A DNA stretch of 35,562 nt, taken from Folioceros fuciformis (Eukaryota). A program made the translations under genes and the position numbers. Each line of letters begins with the position of its first letter. Position 1 is the stretch's first letter. Below the pieces are notes generated by a model that saw nothing but the letters and a program-made list of their open reading frames with translations, made no database searches and was not told where the DNA came from. The DNA is taken from contig JBNGIO010006258.1 in assembly GCA_049999805.1 (NCBI GenBank), positions 240,486 through 276,047 on the forward strand, read 5' to 3'. Shown one piece after another: positions 1,558-20,176 of the stretch.

Positions 1558-2712
1558 CTTCGTCACCTCTCCTCCCCCAAAGAGCTCGAATTGCCCACCC
1601 CCCGTCACCCCAAATCCGACCAGACCATCTCTCAATCCCGACACTCCCAATTTCGCCCACAAGTTCCGTCCAGCCCGAACCAATTCCCTCTCCCAGCCCC
1701 ACTTCCCACCTTACCGCAGGAATGCGCACCGAACCAGCCCAAGAAACCTGCACCACCAAGAACGCAGCAGCAGCCGCGAGCCCAGCCTCTGCTCCTATTC
1801 CCGCGTCTCAGTCCGACGAGGACGGGCACTGGCTCTGCGACCCGGTGCCCCAGAAGAAGACAGCTTTCTCGTCCATCGCACGGACGCAAGCTGTGTGGAA
1901 GAATTGCAGAGGAGGACTGGAGCAGTCGGGCCTCAGCCTAGCTGGGAGGAAGTAGAGGCTAGCACTCCAGAAGCGCAACGGCCACTTTGGTGGTGCCAGA
2001 GGTGCGACAAGGCAATCTTGGCCCTGGCTGCCTGGTCTGCTCGCAGTCGCAGTCGTGCAAGCAGGCAGGCGGGCCTGGATGTGCTGAATGCGAGCACGGG
2101 GAGTGAAAGAAAGCGTACCGATTTGAACATCGGAGCGTGATGTTTTCCCCCCGTAATTATGTGCTCGCCTATTGCGCCAAGCGGTGGACCGGGGTACGAG
2201 CAGCAACGGGAAGAAGTCGAGGTTTGCTGGCCCAGGCCCAGGCCCTGGCCCGATTTGAATCGCAACGGTCGCTAACGGCACTGATGCCTTAACGGCTAGT
2301 GCGTGTCCGTTCTGACAGCGCAGCCAACCTTCACGTAGCCTTTCTATACATACCATGCACATTGCTATTTGACGTCGCCTGTCTTTGGACCCCGGCCACC
2401 CACCACTTCCTACCAGCTTGTGGTTGCCGGAGTCCATCCTCCCTTCTTGCTCGGAAGCTTAGGCTCTCGACGTGTGTCTACACGGCTTAGGCCCAGTGGA
2501 GTAGGTGGAAGACTTTCTTTATAAAGTACTTTGAACTAATCATCCTGCCTATAAGAACTCCAAATTAGATGGGTGTCTAAAGGATGTCATTGAACTAAGA
2601 AGTTTTTTTTTTCTTTTTTAATGATAGGTTTTTCGTTATTCCACATTATAGGTGGTTATTGAGAATGATTTGGAACGGGCTAGTACTTTTGGTGATGCTC
2701 ATGTTGTTTCTA

Positions 2713-2791
2713 TGATTGTTTCTCTGATCTTTAGTCTTGCTTGATTGTTTCTCTGATCTTTAGTCTTGCTCAGATTGGTTCTCTGATCTTT
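2713..2791. repeat. 29-bp tandem repeat (2 exact copies + 1 partial)
   Basis: TGATTGTTTCTCTGATCTTTAGTCTTGCT at 2713-2741 and 2742-2770, with a degenerate copy at 2771-2791. Confidence 0.9.
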
Positions 2792-3368
2792 CTCCAACTC
2801 CAACTGTTCTTTCAAGCTTTCTCCCATCTTTTAGCCTTGTATGGAATATCGATACGAAACAAATGTGCCCTCTTCGATTGTAGGGCACAAAGTAGGTGTC
2901 CCGATCAACACAACTACTTTATAATCCTTAATGTTTGTACATAACTTACCCTGGCGGTATAGGGTCCAAACATTTTGGACGTAACAAATAAGCCCCGTAA
3001 CATATGAGCCTTCTCCAGTCCTAGGGCACAAAGAAGGTGTCCCGATCGGGACACCTATTTTTTGATCCCTCACGTTTGGATCCGTTACGTATGATAATAT
3101 CCGAGGACCCCAGGCAATGGTGCACACCAAGACGGTCAGCGAGGTGGTGATGCGGGTCGGCGGCGGGGTCGTGATGCAGATTCAAGTTCCTAGTCTAGCA
3201 TCCCATCAACAAGGAGGATGTGGAGGTAGTAGTGCGAGCTCTCTTACTCTGAGGTGTGCTCCTCTAGAGAGGAGAATGACACATTTGTGCGTCCACGGTG
3301 GCATCAATGCCGTTAGCGACTGTTGCAATGTCAGGACTGGTGTCAGCTGCCGCCCATGGCAGACAATT

Positions 3369-3576
3369 GTCTCTCGCTCGCCGGGCGTGAGGGTCTTATA
3401 TGACGGTGTCAATCGGTGCATGTCTCAAACACTACCAAACCCTAAGGGCGGCCAACAACCGTCTCTTGCTTGCCGGGCGTGAGGGTCTTACATGGCGGTG
3501 TCAATCGGTGCATGTCTNNNNNNNNNNTACATGGCGGTGTCAATCGGTGCATGTCTGAAACACTACAAAACCCTAA
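3369..3576. repeat. ~90-bp tandem duplication spanning a 10-N assembly gap
   Basis: GCCGGGCGTGAGGGTCTTA..TG.CGGTGTCAATCGGTGCATGTCT recurs at ~3380 and ~3472, and its 3' part again after the gap at 3518-3527. Units end in CACTAC(C/A)AAACCCTAA. True copy number is unknown because of the gap. Confidence 0.85.
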
Positions 3577-3819
3577 CCCCTTCGAACCCCTGACATGTTT
3601 CATCGTTATTTTTTATGATGAGGGTGCGTGAACCCAAATAAAAAATATAGTACGCATCCGTATCAATCACATGCCCGTTACAGTGATGAGAAAAAGTTCC
3701 TCGAAGTGTACAGGTAGGTCCCGTGACGTGGCTATGTTCAGTACGGGGAATCTGTAGTAGATTCTACAATATATTTCCATATAACATACGTATTTAAAAA
3801 AAAAAAATCTATGTCTAGG

Positions 3820-10623: not shown

Positions 10624-11420
10624 CATGAGGGCCTGTAGGAGTGACGAGGTTCTCTCAAGAAGAAGGACCATACGAATTTGCAGGTCAGTGCACATGTGTG
10701 TCCATGATGACCACAGCTCCTAGCCTGAGAGGCTCAAAGCTTAACCCGTTCAGCTATGCTCCAGTAGCTAAAGCACCTTGTCCGCATGACATTCCTTCTG
10801 CTTCTCGTCTTCTGGGGTTTGAGAATCCACATGGTTGTTGCGAGGTTCAGTCCGGCATGAAATCTTCCTCACGCTGCTTGCTGCAGCTTGTCCATGTTAC
10901 AGGATGACAATTCTTGTTCAATTTAACTTTTTGAAAACCGTCGGTGGTTTATACCACGAGCCGTTTCTCTGTTTACCACGTTTGCGTTTGCAAGTTCGAT
11001 GACTCACATTCCCCATACGGAAGGCGAAGAATTTTATGACGCTTGTTCGATCAGATGCAGGAACAGAAACACAACAGCAAACTGTTTCTCTGTAGATTGG
11101 CAGCATTGAGGAGAGAACTAAAGGTCATTCAGCATCACTTCATGGCCAGTACAGCGACTGATGTTCGGTCTTCGAAACGGATCAGGAGCTGAAGCGAGGA
11201 GAGTTCAGTTGCAAACCGCGTTGCTGAGACCCCTTTATAAGAGGCAACAGTGTTTCATCGGGCGACTCAATCCCAAACTTCTTCTGTCTCTGCGCTCAGC
11301 TCGAAGTCACACAGGTCTATCCAGAGGAACTCCTCGTCGGCTTGCGATGCTCGGTCCTCCCTGAAGCAAGTTGCAATGCTGTCATCTGACCTGTTGTTCC
11401 CTTGCCTCCAGGCTGCAGAC

Positions 11421-12162
11421 ATGGAGAACTGGAAGCCGGATGAACATGAAGGAGATTTTATTCGTTGCATCAACCAACGGTTTCGAAACTACAAAGGGAC
11501 GCTGCAAGAGTACGCTCAGGCAGCCGGCGTGGGCAAACCTGAGTACGAAACCTTCGAAAGGCCTTCCTTGAGAAGCTGCTTTTCGTCAGCAGTTGTTGTA
11601 GACGGTGTCGCATACAGCAGCAAAGGCAAGCACCACACCCGCAAGGGAGCTGAGCAGGACGCGGCGAAAGTGGCCCTCAAGAAGCTGGAGCTCAGACCGC
11701 AGGTCGTCCCGGAAACAGAGCACCAGGGCTAGGTTACCACGAATTCAAGACGTCCCCGTTTGAGCTTTTCTAACACAGGACACATCCTCCTTGCGCTGCA
11801 TCGCAGGACAATCCGGTGATCAATTCTCTCCTACGGAAGAGCAAAAACTCACAGATCAACCTGTCGCCCGGCGTTGTTGAAGAGCTCACCTTACAACTTT
11901 CTCACCTCCTGGCAAAGGACGATTCCCTGACCGCTCTGAAGAAGTCGAAGGAGGAGTTCGACAAAGCCGTCAAGAGTCGCAAGCTCAAGCGCCTCGTGCA
12001 GGAAGCCGTGAATGAGGTTGAGTTCAAGTTCCAGCTGGTGAACGAACTCATGCACAAGGTGCGTGTGCTGGAACCTGCCCGGCCCTGTCACTGACCTGAA
12101 TCAAACTCCGCCTACCAGAGTCCTGACTTTGCTCTTGTCTGCAGCAAAAGAAGCAGTCATAG
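11421..12162 (+). CDS. Double-stranded RNA-binding motif (DRB/HYL1-type dsRBD) protein with helical C-terminal region
   Basis: NYKGTLQEYAQ..G...PEY....FSSAVVVDGVAY.S....TRKGAEQDAAKVAL is a canonical plant dsRBD. Phase-0 exons 11421-11702, 11807-12058 and 12145-12162 (stop TAG). An acceptor-like CCTCCAG ending at 11411 means upstream exons may exist. Confidence 0.8.
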
Positions 12163-12638: not shown

Positions 12639-12749
12639 CAAGCGCGGGCGTGCGCTGCGAGTATAGTCCACATAGCTTGCAAGCCCTGGAAGTCCACCAA
12701 GTCTGTCTCTCAAATATCGGCGACATCTTCCCCGGCGACGACGAGAATC

Positions 12750-13794
12750 ATGGCCACCGCAAGCCGCGTTCTAGCAGCTGTGTGCGCGACGCTGCTGCTG
12801 GTCCTTCTGTGCTCGCAGCTGGACACGGCCGCTTGCAGGTCCAGCCCTTCCAACAACAAGCCCGAATGCAGCAGCAGCCGGCTGTGCCCCAACAACCAGT
12901 GCTGCAACAACTACGGCCACTGCGGCTACACCGAGGCCTACTGCCACAAAGGCTGCCTCTCGCAGTGCGGCGACGGCAAGGGCAAGCCCAGGGGCGGCAA
13001 CAAAGGCTCGAGCTGCTTCCCGGGCGACGCGATCGTGCAGCTCGCCGGAGGCCGCGCCAAGCGCATGCGTGAGCTCGGGCTCGGCGACGAGGTTGGTTCA
13101 GTTTCCTGCACACCTCCCAAACCTCCCTCCCTCTCTCTCGCTGCACTCCAGAATCACAACATCACGAGCCACACTTCTCCTGCAGGTAGCAGTATGGAGC
13201 TCCAAGACGGGGACCATGTTATACGACCCCGTGTACGCGTTCGGGCACAAGGACCCCGACGCGGAGGCGGAGTTCGTGGCCATCCACGCCGGCGCGGCCT
13301 CCTTCCTCCACCTCACCGCCAACCATTTCCTCCCGACGGCGACGCCCACAGGACGGGCACCAGTGTACAAGCGAGCGCGGGACGTGCGGATCGGGGACCT
13401 GGTGTGGGCGGGAGCTGGAAACGACACAGCTCCCAGCGTGAGGAAAGTGAGCGGGATCTCCATCACAGTCCGACAAGGCCTGTACAATCCGCTCACCATG
13501 AGTGGGACCATCGTGGTGGACGGCGTGGTGGCGTCGGCGCACAGCGACTGGTTCCTGGACCCGCTCTTCGACCTGCTGCGCATCCCGCACCACCTTCCCG
13601 CTGCGTACCAGGCCGTGCTGGCTCCTGTTCGCCTGCTGTACCATGCGCTCGGGAAGCAGGTCTACAGCAGCATCTACAGCGCGCTGGACTCCCGCATCGA
13701 TCTGGCCAGCTTCGGGAGCCAGCACGGCGGCACCGTCTTCACGCTCCTCCTCGTCCTCGCTTTGTCGGCCTCATTCATCTCGTCGTCCAGGTGA
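12750..13794 (+). CDS. Secreted hevein (CBM18 chitin-binding) - Hog (Hedgehog Hint + sterol-recognition region) autoprocessing protein, 316 aa
   Basis: Exons 12750-13091 and 13186-13794, separated by a 94-bp phase-0 GT-AG intron. Signal peptide; 8-Cys hevein CSSSRLCPNNQCCNNYGHCGYTEAYCHKGCLSQC; G/K linker; Hint blocks SS|CFPGDAIVQL...KRMRELGLGDEV, LHLTANHFL, ARDVRIGDLV and GLYNPLTMSGTIVVDGVVASAHS; SRR-like YQAVLAPVRLLY; hydrophobic C-tail. Confidence 0.93.
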
Positions 13795-14053
13795 GGCTCA
13801 CCTGTCGGGACCAACTCTTGCCAAATGTCCTGCTTGCTTTCACACGCCTCCCAATCAGACCTAAATGCATCCACCATCCCTATGTCAATGTCAAGCCACA
13901 CCATCATCACTCCATGTACATATCTATGTGCAGCAGATACATGTACCCCATTTAGGGTTGTTATTTATGTTTATTAATTACGAGTATTATGCAAATAGAT
14001 ACATCCTCCTTAACAATACTAGAAGATTTACAACATTAATGATACACCAAGTG

Positions 14054-17000
14054 TTATACATGTTTTGATACAAGGAGGCCTTCCACTTCTTCTAAGCTAC
14101 CATTAGACAACAATATACTGGTCTCCTCCCTCTTGGCATCGTCGGATTCCAAGACATTTTCCTTCTCGTCCTTTCCCTTTCCCACCTCCTTCCACATGGG
14201 CGTGGGTGGTTGAAACTGCTGTAAGATTTCCACCACTTCTTGCATCGAGGGTCGATGGATAGGCATCAAACTTGTACACAGCAATCCAAGTTGGAGCAGC
14301 CTGGACATACTGTCATCCCACTCTTTCTCCAATGCAATGTCCCGCAGTTCAACCCCTTTGGCCCATTGGTGAGCTGCCCACGCAGCTAGAGTGACCCCTT
14401 CTCCAAACGCCTTGACATCAAGAGGCTTCCGTCCTGTCACCAGCTCCAACAAAACTACTCCAAAGCTGTACACGTCGCTCTTCTCGGTTATTTTGTCCGT
14501 GTAGCTGTACTCTGCAAAAAAGCAGCATACCGAGGGGGTGTTAACAGGGATCCGGGACTGTGCTGGTGGGAGTGCTTGACGGAGTGGTAGAAGAACCTGT
14601 CTGGGAAGGGACAGGTCGCGGGATCGATCTGAAGCAGCATACCGAGTGGGGATTAACAGGCATCCGGGACTGCGCTGGTGGAGGGGCTTAACGGAGTGGT
14701 AGAAGAACCTGTCTGGGAAGTGACAGGTCGCGGGATCGAACTCAAGCAGCATACCGAGGGGGTATGAACAGGGATCCGGGACTGTGCTGGTGGAGGGGCT
14801 TGACGGAGTGGTAGAGGAACCTCTGGAAACTGTCTGAAAAGGGACAAGTCGCGGGATCGAACTCACCTGGCGCAATGTAGCCTCTGGAACCGGCTACGGC
14901 GGTGACCACGTCGCCTCCCGAGTTGGTGCCGCTCAGTTTGGCGAGCCCGAAGTCGGAGAGACAGGCCTCCAGGTCGGCGTCGAGCAGAATGTTGTTGGCC
15001 TTGACGTCGCGGTGCAGGATCTGGCCGTCCGGCGCGTGGTGGTGGAGATACGCCAGCGCGTCGGCTACGCCTACCGCGACGCGGAACCGGCTGTGCCAGT
15101 CCAGCCCCTCGCCTGCCGGTGGCGAGTGGAGGAGGTCGCCCAGGCTCCCGTGCGGCATGTACTCGAACACCAGCAGGTTCCAGTCGCTGGAGGCCCCGCT
15201 GCACAGGAGCTTGACGATGTGCCGGTGGCGGGTGCTCCGGCCAAGCGTCTGAACCTCGGCCTCGAACCCGTGATCTGCGTACTTTTTCGACCGCGGCCCC
15301 GTTGGCCTGGGGAGCAGCTTCGCCGCCACGGTCGTCCCGTCCCGAAGCTCCACTTTGTATACCCGCCCTGACGCACCGGACCCGATCAGGCGCGCCGCGC
15401 CGAGGCCAGACAAGACCTCCTCGGGTTGGAACCACAGGTCCTGGAACGACTTGAAGGACCACTGGGCGTCGTCGTCCGCAACCTCGCGAGCCCGCAGGAT
15501 GCGCCTCCATGCCAGGCAGCATCCGATCGCGGCGAGAGCCAGGCCTGCCACGACCGCCAGGGTCACCCAGGGCCAGGCCCGGGACCGGCGCGCGGGGGGG
15601 CTCGGGGCCGCGGTTGGGCAGGGTCGGACGCCCGGGCCGCACAGGCCCGGGTTGTTGAGGAAGGAGTCGCCATAGCCGTCGGTGTCGAAGGCCGGCGGGA
15701 TCGGGCCCGACAGGTCGTTGTTGGAGACGTTGAAGGAGCTGTAGGTGCTGCGGAATCCGGGGGGGATGGCGCCGGATAGTTTGTTGTCGGAGAGGTCGAG
15801 GCGGGAGAGACTGGAGATGTCGGCGAGAGATGGCGGGATGGAGCCAGAGAGTAGATTGCTGGAGAGGTCGAGCTGCACCAGAGTCGAGCAGTTTCCCAGC
15901 TCGGACGGGATGCTGCCGGAGAGGCGGTTGGATTGGAGGAAGAGATCTCCCAGCACCTTGAGGTTGCCGAGACTCGGCGGGATGGCGCCTTCCAGGAGGT
16001 TGTAAGAGGCGTTGAAGCGCAATAGTGAAGACAGATTGCCCAGCTCTGGAGGGATCGGGCCGGAGAAGCGGTTGTTGCCGATCAGCAGCATGGTGCGATT
16101 CGAGGAGGCGCCTGCTTCCGGCGGGATGGTGCCGTTCAAGAGATTGTTGGACAGGTCCATGTAGTCCAGTCTGGGGCTACCCCAGAGCTCCTTGGGGAAG
16201 CTGCCGGTTATGTAGTTGCTGTCGATGCGGAGGCCGTGGAGGGAGCTGCAGTTGGCGTAGGAGGCCGGGAAGGGCCCGGAGAAGGCGTTGGACTGGATGG
16301 CGAAGGTACTCAGCTGGCCGCCGTTGCATGCGGCCCAGGGCACGGGCCCGACGAAGTTGTTGGACGCTATCTCGAAATCCTTTAACGGGCTATTGGCGCC
16401 GAAGGTCGGTGGGAAGGGCCCGCTCAGCAGGTTGTTGAAGATGGTGAAGTTGGTGAGCTTCGTCAAGCTGGCCATGGCTTCCGGCACGCTGCCTGTCAGC
16501 GAATTGTTCTTCAATGAGAACAACATCAGGTTCTTCCACTCTCCCAAGTCCTGTGGGAATTCCCCGCTCAACTGGTTCCCGGCCCCGGAAAATTCCTCCA
16601 TGTTCACCAGCTTCCCCATCCCGGACGGCAGGCTGCCGCTCAGCTGGTTGTTGTCGAAGAGGAAGCCCGTCAAGCTGGTGAGCTCCGTGATAGACTGCGG
16701 GATGGATCCTGAAAGCTGGTTGTTTACAAGGTACAGGGTTCTCAGATTCTTGAGCGACGACACTGAATCCGGGATGGAACCTGTGAGCAAGTTCGAGCTC
16801 AGATCAAGAGCATAGAGCGAAGTGAGGTTGCCGATGGAGTCGGGGATGGCGCCGGAGAGGGAATTGTGAAGAGCCTGGAAGTCCTGCAGCTGCGTGAGGT
16901 TGCTCATATCTGGAATGCTCCCGTTAAGCAGGTTGCTCCCTAGGTGGAGAAAGGTCAGGTTCCGGAGGCTGCCGATGGACCTCGGGATGGGGCCTGTCAG

Positions 17001-17837
17001 CATGTTGGCCGTCAGATCCAGCTGCGTGAGATTGGTGAGCCTCCCAATGCTTTCCGGGATGGAGCCAGTGAGAAGATTGAAGCCGAGATTCAGCAACGTC
17101 AGTTGTGTGCTGCCGATGGATTCGGGGATGGTGCCCGTCAAATTGAAGCAGTGATCCGCCTGAAACACCTGCAGCTGCGTCAGATTGCTGAAATCGAGGA
17201 GCATAGTTCCCTCCAACCCGAGGTTCGTGTCGACCCGGAGCGTCTGCAACGTCGCCAGCTTCCCATACGCGGGAGGGATGCCCCCGGTGGTGAAGAGGTT
17301 GGAGTGTAGCATCAGCGTTTGGAGCCTCCCTAACTCTCCGATGGAGGGAGGCATGCTCCCGTTGAGGTAATTCTCCGCCAGGTCCAATGTCTCCAGGTTC
17401 TGGAACACGGCGAACTTGTCCGGCAGCTCGCCCCCGACCATTGTGAGCCGCACCTGCATGAACGTCAGCCCGGTGCAGTTGAAGAGGCCGTCGGGGAAGT
17501 CCCCGCTGATTCCCGTCATGTTGTACAGCAGCAGCACCTGCAGGGTGGGGATTTTGCAGAAGGCGGGCACCAACGGGCCGGACAAGTCGGCGGAGGAGAT
17601 GTTGAGCCCAGTGACCACCTCGACGCCTCCGCTGCTACTGCACTGCACGCCGCTCCAGGAGCACACTGGGATGGAGGTGGTCCAACTCGCCAGCGTCCCC
17701 CCGGGATCCTCCAGGGCTGCTTTGAATGCCATCAGGTTCGCCATGTCCGACTCTGATCCTGCTCGGCCTCCCCGAAGCAGGTGCAGGACCAGGATCAGCC
17801 ATGCTAGCAGCAACGGCACGCGGCCGGAGCAAGCCAT
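14054..17837 (-). CDS. LRR receptor-like kinase, subfamily XI (HAESA/HSL-like), RD kinase
   Basis: Exon 1 17837-14867 carries a signal peptide, WxxxxxVCSWSGVQC cap, ~27 LRRs, NNPGLCG cap, TM helix, WSFKSFQ juxtamembrane, IGSGASGRVYK, HRDVKANNILLD, DFG and GSRGYIAP. Intron 14866-14512 lies at the conserved GYIAP|E position. Exon 2 14511-14054 reads EYSYTDKITEKSDVYSFGVVLLELVTG...RPSMQEVV. Confidence 0.96.
14520..14865. repeat. Three tandem ~112-120-bp copies filling the LRR-RLK intron
   Basis: AAGCAGCATACCGAG.GGG...ATCCGGGACTG.GCTGGTGG...ACGGAGTGGTAGA.GAACCT...GTCGCGGGATCGA starts at ~14520, ~14632 and ~14744. Confidence 0.93.
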
Positions 17838-20176
17838 GGGGAGCCCCGACCTCCTCCACCTCGCCCCGGCAGCAGCACACAAGGCTACCCAAGACTATGT
17901 CCGATCAACCAGGTCAAGACCTCCGCACCGCAAGGCAACTTCATGTGGGGTTGGCATAGTTGAAGGAGTCTTTGGTGGGGCGAAGTGGTTGGTAGTAGCT
18001 GTCGCCAGGATGCTGCGGATGCGGGGCCGAGCCGCCCTCGTGCCTTTTTGCTTTCAGTGACGATATATATTCGGTCAAGCAGTGAAGAACCTTCTCTTCC
18101 GTCGCGAGTCGGTGAAGGTACTCACTCACTCACGCCATCAACCGGCCTTCGCTGTGTTGTGCATCAGTCCAAGATGTTCCAGTCAACTTCTCCACCTCAG
18201 CATACAGGCATGTTCCTCGTTCCCCTACTCATGCCCCATGGCCACCACATTCGACCTCGTCCCGTAAGACAGGGTGGGTGAAAGATGTGGTCACCGTTAA
18301 GAACCGGTTTGCGACCGGTTTTCGAAACAGCCATCTCCCTCCCGGAAGCTGCTCCCGTTTTCGTCCAGGTCGGAGGATGGTGAAGATTTCTCCTTACCGC
18401 AACTGAAAACCTCGGAGAAGGTGGGCTCCAGGTCTGTGAATTCTAGCATCTTTCTGCATGATGTGCGTACGCAGGAGGGCCCGCCTATGACTAATCCTCA
18501 TCCTGTTACTCTTGATGGTGTGCCGGAAGCCTTGTCCCTGCTCTGGTGTTTTGAAGTTACAAACAGCCAGGCTGCTTCATATCGGTACACTCTGAAAGGA
18601 GGACAACAGCCAGGACTGTCAGATACCACACTAGAGATCCATGTTCAGCAGCAACTTCTCCTTGAGCTTCAACTCAGTGATGACTGCATCAGGAAATTTC
18701 TTAGATTATGTTTTGGAATCGCAGCAAGCAAGTCTGGGAACAACAATCCAAGCTGTAACTCTTGTTCAGAAGGATCTGCAGACCTTCTGGACAGCAGGAT
18801 GTAGAGGAAGAGTGAAGTGGCAGTGACAGTCATATGACGCCACTCACTTTTCCAACCCCACGGAGCTATACTCGACGCACAACACTACTCCACTACCAGA
18901 ATCCGCCTGGCTTCATCCTCCACTAACGACGCATCTCGATGTGTGGTTCTCTAGGTGCAACGTGTGGTGTGAAAGCTCGAGATGCTCTCAGACGCAGGAT
19001 CTAAGCGTGCTCGTATCCAGAACTTTTCTACTTGTGTGCCTTGTTGGCGTGCCTCCCAAGGTAGTTCAGTTCACCACGACGAAGAGATGATATCATGCAT
19101 TCACGGACAGTCTCTTTTGTGTGCTAACAATTCGTTTTCGTAGGAATCGAGGTGCAATGTGTTCCTCAGACATCCTTCGGGACCCTGGAGAATATTCTTT
19201 CCATGACGTAGGAAAGTTCGGCATTGGCAAATGATCTTCCATCGGTTGGAGGGCATAGGTGGGGCTTGAGGAGTGGGAGATAAGGGGTGGGGATTGAGGC
19301 GTGGGAGTGGAGAACTGTGGCTTGAGGTCTTTGGGGTGAACGGAGATTAAATTTTGCTACTTCGTAGTCGCCTGGCTGTGTCTCTGTCATCTCCTATGTG
19401 CAGAGAAGATTCCACCCGAGGTTCGTCTCATAACATGGGTCCCATCACCAGCATGGGCATGGGTGAGGAACGTACATGCACATTGCAGTCTATCTTGGTT
19501 AAATAGTAGCGAGTTGTGCGATCTCGACCACTAACATTGATCCAGAGTAAACTATATGTACATACATACCTTGCCATGGCGTCCGGATAGTGGTGTAGGC
19601 AGTGAAGCTCGGTGCTACTTGATTCAAAGCAGTGTAGGCGAAGCCGGAACCTAAAGGAGGCGTGGCCTGTTCGTCGTGACAATAAATAGCATTGATGGAG
19701 AACGGCGTTCAGCCAAGACTTCTTCCACGCTACTACTACCCAGTCGACCACCACATTGCTCTCGTCCAACCTGAGGTCTCGTTGGGACGTGGTAACGTTA
19801 CCTTTTTGTCTTTCCCCGTTCGCAACGACGGTACACTCGGCTTCTTGAGCCAATTTTGGGGACAGCTGCCGTGGGTAATTACCTCCTCTGTACCATCGGG
19901 ATGCCTGTCCTTCCAGTGTCCGCCAGAAGGGAAGAGCTTTGACGGTGCCTGGGCCTGCTGTCTGTGCCGCTCCTTGCAGCTGTTCTTCTTGCTGGTCCAG
20001 GCTGCGATTACGCCGCTGGCTGTCCTGTTTCTTCAGGTGTCGTCTTCTAGATTCTGAGGTCCTCTACCACGCTTTGTGCAGATTTTCAGTATGTTGTAGC
20101 CAGCATTCGGTCTTGCTGACTGCAGATCGCTTTCGGATGCATTAAAGCGCGTCATCGGTCCTTCTGTGCAAGCAGA

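Follow-up and report, generated by a model that had tools for sequence, protein, structure and literature searches.

Can a Hog domain with histidine in place of the general-base aspartate of Hedgehog (D46) and alanine in place of its second cysteine (C143) carry out Hedgehog-type chemistry, and are these replacements the oddity of one gene or the rule of a family? The question is raised by a gene within a 35,562-nucleotide stretch of DNA from Folioceros fuciformis (GenBank assembly GCA_049999805.1, contig JBNGIO010006258.1, positions 240,486 to 276,047, forward strand), hereafter the window, from whose first letter all coordinates are counted. The locus is a transcribed and spliced two-exon gene encoding a 316-residue precursor, which is predicted to comprise, in this order, a signal peptide, a hevein-like chitin-binding peptide, a Hedgehog-type Hog domain and a C-terminal membrane anchor. 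The gene belongs, as an ordinary member, to the plant-type Hog family, a large family that is known though uncharacterised and whose norm, in the sequence neighbourhood covered by the alignments, is histidine at position 46, a variable residue at position 143 and histidine at position 144 (Hedgehog numbering). The features of the gene on which the argument rests are the following.

12750..13091, + strand: exon 1, 114 codons (P0002), from the open reading frame (ORF) and its translation
12876..12968, + strand: hevein-like domain (Chitin_bind_1, PF00187), residues 43-73 of P0002
13014-13016, + strand: TGC codon of the putative Cys1 (Cys89 of the spliced protein), where the profile consensus CFP falls on the CFT of HhC residue 1
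13092..13185, + strand: intron of 94 nucleotides (nt) with GT..AG ends, skipped by the contig of run X1 (cut +2)
13186..13794, + strand: exon 2 (P0001), 202 amino acids plus stop, from the ORF translation and the Pfam Hint match
13231..13254, + strand: VYAFGHKD, with the His codon CAC at 13246-13248 (His135) and the Asp codon at 13252-13254 (Asp137)
13315..13326, + strand: TANH (TxxH motif), aligned to TPAH of 1AT0 (T69/H72)
13528..13545, + strand: VASAHS, with the Ala codon GCG at 13537-13539 (Ala232) and the His codon at 13540-13542 (His233)
13540..13650, + strand: conserved post-Hint region HSDWFLD...LPAAYQAVLAPVRLLYHAL, adduct- or sterol-recognition-like, Burglin's motif K
13732..13779, + strand: C-terminal hydrophobic segment TVFTLLLVLALSASFI, followed by SSSR and the stop, from the sequence

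Active-site residues of the Hint domain

Taken by itself, exon 2 reaches 77.6 bits with the Pfam Hint profile PF01079 (cut-off 29.7, E 1.3e-21), which puts the Hint assignment far beyond chance, and the tail of exon 1 contributes a further 20.9 bits over profile positions 9-37. Among the sequences of the PDB, phmmer finds a single significant family for the exon 2 translation, the Drosophila Hedgehog C-terminal domains (HhC), with the D46H mutant 6TYY as the best match (E 1.6e-4) and 1AT0 behind it (E 3.2e-3). The alignment runs without gaps from residues 7-119 of P0001 on residues 32-144 of the HhC chain, and its posterior marks are maximal across the FGHKD columns. It pairs His21 of exon 2 (His135 of the precursor) with position 46, Asp23 with position 48, T44 and H47 with T69 and H72, and Ala118 (Ala232) with C143, while His233 falls on the column of the Hedgehog Y144.

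Family profiles lead to the same register, with significance higher by about 30 orders of magnitude than that of the single sequence. Profile A2, built from 110 family members, matches 6TYY with an E-value of 3.7e-35 and 1AT0 with 5.1e-33, is gapless from Cys1 to position 48, and sets the consensus His on position 46 of the chain, with the 'ASaH' of the consensus facing 'ASCY'. Profile A1, built from 35 members, matches the same two structures (E 1e-29 and 6.4e-28, respectively) and, against human SHH, pairs the two D residues of FLDRD, in order, with the His and the family Asp. The equivalence of His135, the 47th residue counted from Cys1, with position 46 rests on these sequence and profile alignments and on the fold match of a homologue described below; by the same alignments, Ala232 is assigned to the C143 column and His233 to that of Y144.

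A sequence-only reading of this region had proposed these assignments by eye, and they hold: VYAFGHKD and VASAHS both lie where it placed them, in the frame of exon 2, the His rather than the Asp of HKD falls on D46 in the alignments to 1AT0, 6TYY and human SHH and in both profiles, and the Ala of VASAHS falls on C143 in the phmmer and profile A2 alignments. The reading had named an Asp of HKD at position 46 as one finding that would overturn it; at the level of sequences and profiles, that Asp corresponds to Hedgehog residue 48. Its statement that the domain has no second Cys is likewise borne out, as exon 2 encodes no Cys at all and Cys89 is the sole Cys between the cleavage site and the stop.

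The same active site across the family

An exhaustive phmmer search over 1.84 billion cluster representatives, with a His-bearing query, returned 3074 relatives at E <= 1e-3, including 460 at E <= 1e-10 and 22 at E <= 1e-30. Residues were counted by column in 195 proteins (202 stretches) aligned to P0001, namely the best 150 of the 3074, 50 matches of a separate search (few of them shared) and P0001 itself. In this neighbourhood of the query, the D46 column holds His in 157 of 159 stretches, Glu in one and Asp in one, whereas the other 43 stretches fall short of the column. Two residues further on, Asp (125) or Glu (11) fills most of the same 159 stretches, and the TxxH columns hold Ser (91) or Thr (74) and, at the end of the motif, His (166/169). 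The C143 column behaves very differently, since among 198 stretches it reads Ala in 101, Cys in 33, Ser in 29, Val in 19, Thr in 12, Pro in three and Asp in one, so that a residue of the A/V/P group stands there in 123. The next column, occupied by Tyr in Hedgehog, is His in 189 of 198 stretches, and the one after it is Ser in 195 of 197. This His144, together with the equally fixed Ser that follows, is a family-specific invariant beside the active site.

The start of the domain is similarly constant: of the 115 relatives that extend 46 residues or more upstream, 107 have a CFP-type Cys1 motif, and the remaining eight look like truncated or mis-called models. The distance from Cys1 to the His is 45 residues, which corresponds to position 46, in 57 of these 107, and 44 residues in 25. 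A further search, started from P0052, a divergent member, sampled sequences nearer to Hedgehog; in the 15 that were aligned, the position 46 column is His in 13, Asp in one and Gly in one, and position 143 is Cys in nine.

The closest relatives, with 43-52% identity, come from the moss Ceratodon, the liverwort Marchantia paleacea, the lycophytes Diphasiastrum and Selaginella and the fern Adiantum. Named green algal relatives come from Gonium and Scenedesmus, and further members from protists and from bacterial metagenome-assembled genomes (MAGs). The land-plant members read VYAFGH[KN][DK] ... VAS[A/V/T/S/C]HS[DE]WFLD; residue 143 thus varies even within land plants, and both His residues are fixed. 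The signature shared among plants can be summarised as VYAFGH[KN]D / TxxH / VASxHS[DE]WFLD / YQAxLAPxR, plus a C-terminal hydrophobic tail.

Plant Hogs themselves are not new. Genes with Hog domains in Selaginella and Physcomitrella were already described by Burglin in 2008 (PMC2362128), and, in the accessible text of that paper, the non-truncated plant and red-algal Hogs keep motifs J and K, with the cysteine of motif J replaced. The same text contains neither 'D303', 'histidine' nor 'catalytic', and its figures and additional alignments very likely display the residue. A full-text literature search gave no statement that natural Hog or Hedgehog domains carry His at D46. As far as these searches reach, the family-wide active site with H46, variable 143 and H144 is undiscussed in print. 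The sequence-only reading had called this catalytic set non-canonical; the counts above, and the His of a krill Hedgehog described below, show that it is no peculiarity of the gene.

Structure models

The fold was assessed by proxy, on an AlphaFold2 (AF2) model of the full-length Selaginella homologue P0003 (50% identical; alignment A2), which carries the same motifs as the window protein (CFPGDA, VYAFGHKD and ASAHSEWFLD). The model has a mean predicted local distance difference test score (pLDDT) of 88, rising to 96-98 through the Hint core, and a predicted template modelling score (pTM) of 0.82. Five helices follow the core and, after them, a terminal helix at residues 221-237; the post-Hint helices have a pLDDT of 93-96. 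When the model was compared with known structures by Foldseek, the top two matches were 6tyy (E 2.5e-13) and 1at0 (E 1.1e-11). VIA-align superposed all 130 residues from 29 to 158 on residues 258-403 of 6TYY, with a Z of 23.1 and a root-mean-square deviation (rmsd) of 1.2 Å, and gave an equal Z (23.1) over 129 residues of 1AT0, against 18.3 for the best intein. The ends of the superposition agree with the sequence alignment, Cys29 lying on C258 and residues 157 and 158 on residues 402 and 403, and therefore Ala155 should lie on C400, which is C143. By way of this proxy, the window protein is predicted to adopt the Hint fold.

A model of the window protein from exon 2 only (alignment A1) is poor because the strands encoded by exon 1 are missing from it: its mean pLDDT is 69.8, with values below 50 at residues 1-22, among which is the His, and 100-116, and it cannot serve to judge the active site.

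Precursor architecture and cargo

The precursor begins with a hydrophobic stretch, MATASRVLAAV..., which is likely a signal peptide. The hevein-like cargo that follows matches Chitin_bind_1 (PF00187) in Pfam with an E-value of 1.2e-7 (32.3 bits, cut-off 27.8) and displays a scaffold of eight Cys (residues 40, 46, 51, 52, 58, 65, 69 and 73), which begins at Cys40 (12867). By profile and scaffold, it is assigned to the hevein / Chitin_bind_1 (CBM18) group, and chitin binding is predicted for it. The profile of the Hedgehog N-terminal cargo (HhN, PF01085) has no match in the protein in the Pfam scan. A Gly/Lys-rich linker, followed by SS and, across the predicted cleavage site, by CFPGDAIVQLAGGRAKRMRELGLGDE, closes exon 1, and exon 2 opens with VAVWSSKTGTMLYDPVYAFGHKD... 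The predicted site of thioester formation and cleavage is Ser88-Cys89, in SS/CFPGD, so that residue -1 is Ser here versus Gly in Hedgehog.

The cargo is far from uniform in the family. Among 87 members scanned with Pfam, DUF285 was found in four and TSP1 in two, and fn3 and B_lectin were also detected, while most members are without Pfam cargo. The fusion of Chitin_bind_1 to a Hog domain recurs in two of the 87, P0060 and P0200, which are unnamed transcriptome-type records. Both have Cys on the 143 column (ASCHSDWFLD), and the gene in the window does not; the same cargo therefore occurs with and without the second Cys.

Downstream of the Hint fold, approximately 40 residues are conserved as strongly as the active site. 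In alignment A1, W122, F123, L124, D125, Y141, Q142 and R149 (exon 2 numbering) are nearly invariant. Within this region, AYQAVLAPVRLLY matches the A..A..P.R of Hedgehog, its homologue at the start of the sterol-recognition region, and at least 90% of alignment A3, which includes the krill Hedgehog, retains the Pro and Arg of APxR. The segment at the C-terminus is inferred to be a membrane anchor or a signal of the glycosylphosphatidylinositol (GPI) type. An uncharged run of 21 residues lies within the last 45 of the window protein, and a C-terminal run of at least 15 is present in 83 of 203 proteins examined, many of these being fragments. This hydrophobic segment and the post-Hint region recur in bacterial, green algal and land-plant members.

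Bacterial members and a krill Hedgehog

Uninterrupted ORFs of the Hog family are present in bacterial MAG contigs (L001-L005), for example at 2062-3609 (+) of L001. The carriers comprise an alphaproteobacterium (on a contig of 124,721 bp), Geminicoccaceae, Methylomirabilota and Pseudomonadota. Their proteins read CFPADA..NTHRD..ASAHSDWFLD..YQTVLAPVR, with a hydrophobic C-terminal segment and then an Arg-rich tail.

The His at position 46 also has a counterpart in animals. P0215, from the krill Meganyctiphanes norvegica, is a genuine Hedgehog, with an HhN domain (PF01085) followed by Hint and an E-value of 1e-115 to SHH. Its D46 column is His (ILMFLHKD, compared with FLTFLDRD in SHH and VILFMDRN in the fly), and it keeps the C143-Y144 pair (ASCYA). 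A natural 'D46H' thus exists even among animal Hedgehogs.

Relationship to known self-processing domains

The window protein resembles HhC of Drosophila (1AT0) and its vertebrate counterpart SHhC in its PF01079 match, the 'CF' start at Cys1, TxxH, the GTIVV..V.AS motif, the Hint fold (by proxy of the P0003 model), a homologous start of the post-Hint region (A..A..P.R) and the general order of a secreted cargo followed by a self-cleaving domain. It departs from them in having His for D46, Ala for C143, His for Y144 and Ser for Gly(-1), a hevein-like cargo instead of HhN, and an additional C-terminal hydrophobic anchor. Judged by D46, C143, the HhN cargo and Gly(-1), none of which it has, it is not a Hedgehog proper.

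The engineered D46H (D303H) HhC, 6TYY, is the best PDB match by sequence, profile and fold, and shares the His at the general-base position. It is, however, a laboratory point mutant that keeps C143, Y144 and the sterol-recognition region of the fly, whereas the His of the window family is natural and conserved. The krill P0215 shares a natural His on the D46 column and differs in its HhN domain and C143-Y144. The plant Hogs of Selaginella, Physcomitrella and their relatives share both the signature and the tail, which the window protein also displays, although most of them have other N-terminal regions.

Finally, inteins and bacterial intein-like (BIL) domains share the Hint fold (Z 16-18) and the first step with Cys1 and TxxH. 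Unlike inteins, the window protein has no C-terminal Asn or +1 nucleophile (Ser-Ala stands there), no C-extein and no ligation; the block that corresponds to the intein C-terminus is V-A-S-A-H-S, followed by approximately 80 residues of conserved helices and anchor. The best intein matches profile A2 with an E-value of 4.7e-7, versus 1e-33 for HhC. An intein identity was rejected on the lack of Asn, +1 nucleophile and C-extein.

Published chemistry of positions 46 and 143

The effect of His at position 46 is known from engineered HhC. According to the accessible text of PMC9163320, the D46H mutant retains activity with a pKa unchanged from that of D46 and deviates from the wild type by an rmsd of 0.4 Å, and its activity rises more than 200-fold on coprostanol and more than 300-fold on epicoprostanol; the retained activity and pKa are also given in the legend of Fig. 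1 of PMC12054796. The sequence-only reading had given Asp46 as the residue that activates the sterol hydroxyl and had cited this mutant as active with a broader range of sterols, and PMC9163320 bears out both statements.

For position 143, the same reading had described a Cys that pairs with Cys1 during folding, and this has been superseded. In the portions available of Faris et al. 2025 (PMC12054796), neither C143A nor C143D SHh processes itself in cells, folding does not depend on the C1-C143 disulfide, and C143, whose pKa is 4.5, bears a branched thioester intermediate that corresponds to the C+1 step of inteins; C143 is described there as a required catalytic nucleophile of Hedgehog and not merely a disulfide partner. 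The freedom from disulfide control proposed for the window protein stands in part. A Cys1-Cys143 disulfide cannot form in it, as Cys1 is the sole Cys of its Hog domain, but, as C143 is required in SHh, an Ala at this position also means a different chemical route and not just the loss of a disulfide. The further suggestions of the sequence-only reading, a naturally promiscuous ligase, a non-cholesterol nucleophile and a use in bioconjugation, are conjectural.

Proposed mechanism and alternative explanations

The mechanism that we favour, at slightly above an even chance, combines direct attack on the thioester with the participation of His135, a lipid hydroxyl as the acceptor and an esterified cargo. 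Cys89, aided by T158 and H161, would make the N-to-S acyl shift at Ser88-Cys89. With no nucleophile at position 143, no branched thioester would form there, and the Cys1 thioester would be attacked directly. His135 would act as a general base or an electrostatic catalyst, as in the engineered D46H, perhaps oriented by Asp137, two residues along the same strand. Most likely, the acceptor would be a membrane lipid, in plants a phytosterol, whose hydroxyl the post-Hint region would present next to the anchor; such an acceptor is proposed because the post-Hint region is conserved and resembles the Hedgehog sterol-recognition region, and because the membrane anchor is present in bacteria, algae and plants. 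The product would be a hevein-like peptide of approximately 60 residues esterified at Ser88, with plain hydrolysis as the main alternative outcome. In the family as a whole, the Cys1 thioester would be resolved either directly or via other residues, for which the invariant His144 is the obvious candidate. A wider generalisation, in which plant-type Hogs are natural two-step lipid transferases that dispense with the C143 intermediate and esterify their cargo to phytosterols or another membrane lipid, and their bacterial homologues use a non-sterol acceptor, is put forward tentatively and is on balance doubtful.

Several observations weigh against the lipid-transfer mechanism or against the assignments beneath it. 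The relatives that were counted had been retrieved by likeness to a His-bearing query, and their counts describe a neighbourhood and not all Hog domains. The equivalence of His135 with position 46 comes from alignment and the fold of a homologue rather than from a residue-level superposition, and the exon-2-only model falls below a pLDDT of 50 exactly around His21 (residues 1-22). Residue -1 varies in the family, being Gly in 30, Ser in 23, Asn in 10, Ala in 10 and others in 34 of 107 members. The loss of Hedgehog processing in C143A (PMC12054796, as far as its available text goes) implies that a domain with Ala143 might be inactive or otherwise dependent. An oxidosqualene cyclase scores above the NCBIfam cut-off in only one of the five carrier MAGs (G003, 897 bits versus 851); two others have only sub-threshold matches resembling squalene-hopene cyclase (one of them the unpublished genome G004), and two, like the rest incomplete as MAGs are, have no cyclase match. 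As most carriers are thus without a cyclase above the cut-off, sterol cannot be the universal acceptor. Additionally, the full-text literature search gave no biochemistry of any non-animal Hog domain.

The strongest competitor, itself unlikely, is hydrolytic release, in which His135 (or His233) would activate water, the hevein-like peptide would be freed unmodified from a precursor tethered to the membrane, and the post-Hint region would gate or time the cleavage instead of binding an acceptor. Such an outcome would suit a family whose position 143 is unconstrained, whose cargo is very diverse among the 87 members scanned, and whose bacterial carriers lack, in four of five MAGs, an oxidosqualene cyclase above the cut-off; moreover, Hedgehog domains undergo spontaneous hydrolytic autoprocessing in vitro (PMC13738340, in its accessible text). 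It explains less well why the post-Hint region should be conserved like the active site and share ancestry with the first part of the Hedgehog sterol-recognition region, and the near-universal C-terminal membrane anchor suggests a co-substrate resident in the membrane. Hall et al. are said to have found in 1997 that the Hint fold alone is sufficient for thioester formation and cleavage, which would also speak against a purely hydrolytic role. A dead or decaying copy, the product of which, lacking C143, would remain an uncleaved membrane-anchored chitin-binding protein, is quite improbable. The inactivity of the C143A and C143D mutants of SHh (PMC12054796, same portions) is what this explanation draws on; against it, Cys1, TxxH, His46 and His144 are intact and strongly conserved in plants, algae and bacteria, the ORF is intact and matched by a spliced, transcript-like contig, and Ala is the commonest residue at position 143 in the family (101/198).

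Least probable of all, and very improbable, is an error of register by which Asp137 of HKD would be the general base at D46 and the His a bystander. The acidic character of the +2 column, in 136 of 159 stretches, would fit this idea, as would the reliance of the His assignment on alignment instead of structural superposition at the residue level. However, the alignments are gapless with maximal posterior marks, for the single sequence as well as for two family profiles, and human SHH (FLDRD) and the krill Hedgehog (FLHKD) also have a +2 Asp, which must therefore be the homologue of Hedgehog residue 48 and not of 46. The Cys1-to-His distance, mostly 45 residues, equals position 46 (57/107, with 25 at 44), and the His is more conserved than the Asp (157 versus 125 of 159).

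Implications

A natural family that keeps Cys1, TxxH and the post-Hint region, but has His for Asp and usually no nucleophile at position 143, offers a natural test of whether Hog chemistry can dispense with the branched intermediate, for which any of its members would be an equally suitable experimental system. It also bears on what non-animal Hog domains attach to their cargo, a question standing since 2008. Given the 2025 result on C143, a large natural family in which Ala is the commonest residue at position 143 is the more interesting half of the observation. Hedgehog cholesterolysis is described as unique to animal Hedgehog proteins in the accessible text of PMC7242414; if lipid transfer does take place, the family would provide the first Hedgehog-type sterylation or lipid esterification of a protein outside animals. 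In that case, a domain with a single Cys and a His base would be a practical scaffold for the conjugation of lipids to protein C-termini, and a Cys-poor ligase scaffold of broad specificity would be ready-made. A hevein-like peptide, whether lipid-anchored or released, may act at the cell surface against organisms that contain chitin, a role which we infer from the cargo only.

Gene model and transcript evidence

The residues discussed above lie within 13225-13550, inside exon 2 of the two-exon gene. Exon 1 encodes the hydrophobic N-terminus, the hevein-like cargo, the linker and the first 26 Hint residues (CFPGDAIVQ...LGLGDE); exon 2, whose frame is offset from that of exon 1 by one base, encodes the remainder of the Hint fold, the putative adduct-recognition region and the C-terminal hydrophobic segment. 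The exons are joined in a contig of the public run X1, the only public run that holds the stretch, labelled 'RNA? (a guess)' and not on record as RNA. This contig begins at 12746 and shows no differences to the window over 12746-13089; it leaves out precisely 94 bases, bounded by GT..AG, and matches the window again without a difference over 13184-14200, the shorter side of the junction counting 255 letters. Removal of the intron does take place, therefore, and the frame given here is the one that is read; an alternative placement of the intron, at 13096-13189, leaves the protein unchanged.

No second copy of the gene was found within the window by tblastn, the next match having an E-value of only 0.17, and the window protein itself is absent from the sequence databases searched. 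A pseudogene was rejected on the intact ORF and the spliced contig. A bacterial contaminant was also rejected, as the gene contains an intron and adjoins plant genes for a leucine-rich repeat (LRR) receptor kinase and a double-stranded RNA-binding protein.

Neighbouring sequence in the window

Judged from its neighbouring genes, the window is plant-like nuclear DNA, and the Hog gene is best explained as that of a non-seed land plant or a close relative. The genes on either side of the Hog gene are the following.

11250-11729, + strand: ORF with a double-stranded RNA-binding motif (PF00035, E 6.8e-9), upstream of the Hog gene
14742-17882 and 14054-14875, - strand: LRR receptor-like kinase gene (LRRNT_2, LRRs and Pkinase), convergent with the Hog gene

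At a length of 6597 nt, the contig of run X1 reaches beyond 14200 in the direction of the kinase gene; the two genes may overlap at their 3' ends, or these ends may have been fused by the assembler. Inside the kinase domain of the kinase gene lies an intron that carries a 112-bp tandem repeat (14520-14822, 2.7 copies, 90% matches), and this repeat yields repeated peptide motifs in the program-made list of ORFs.

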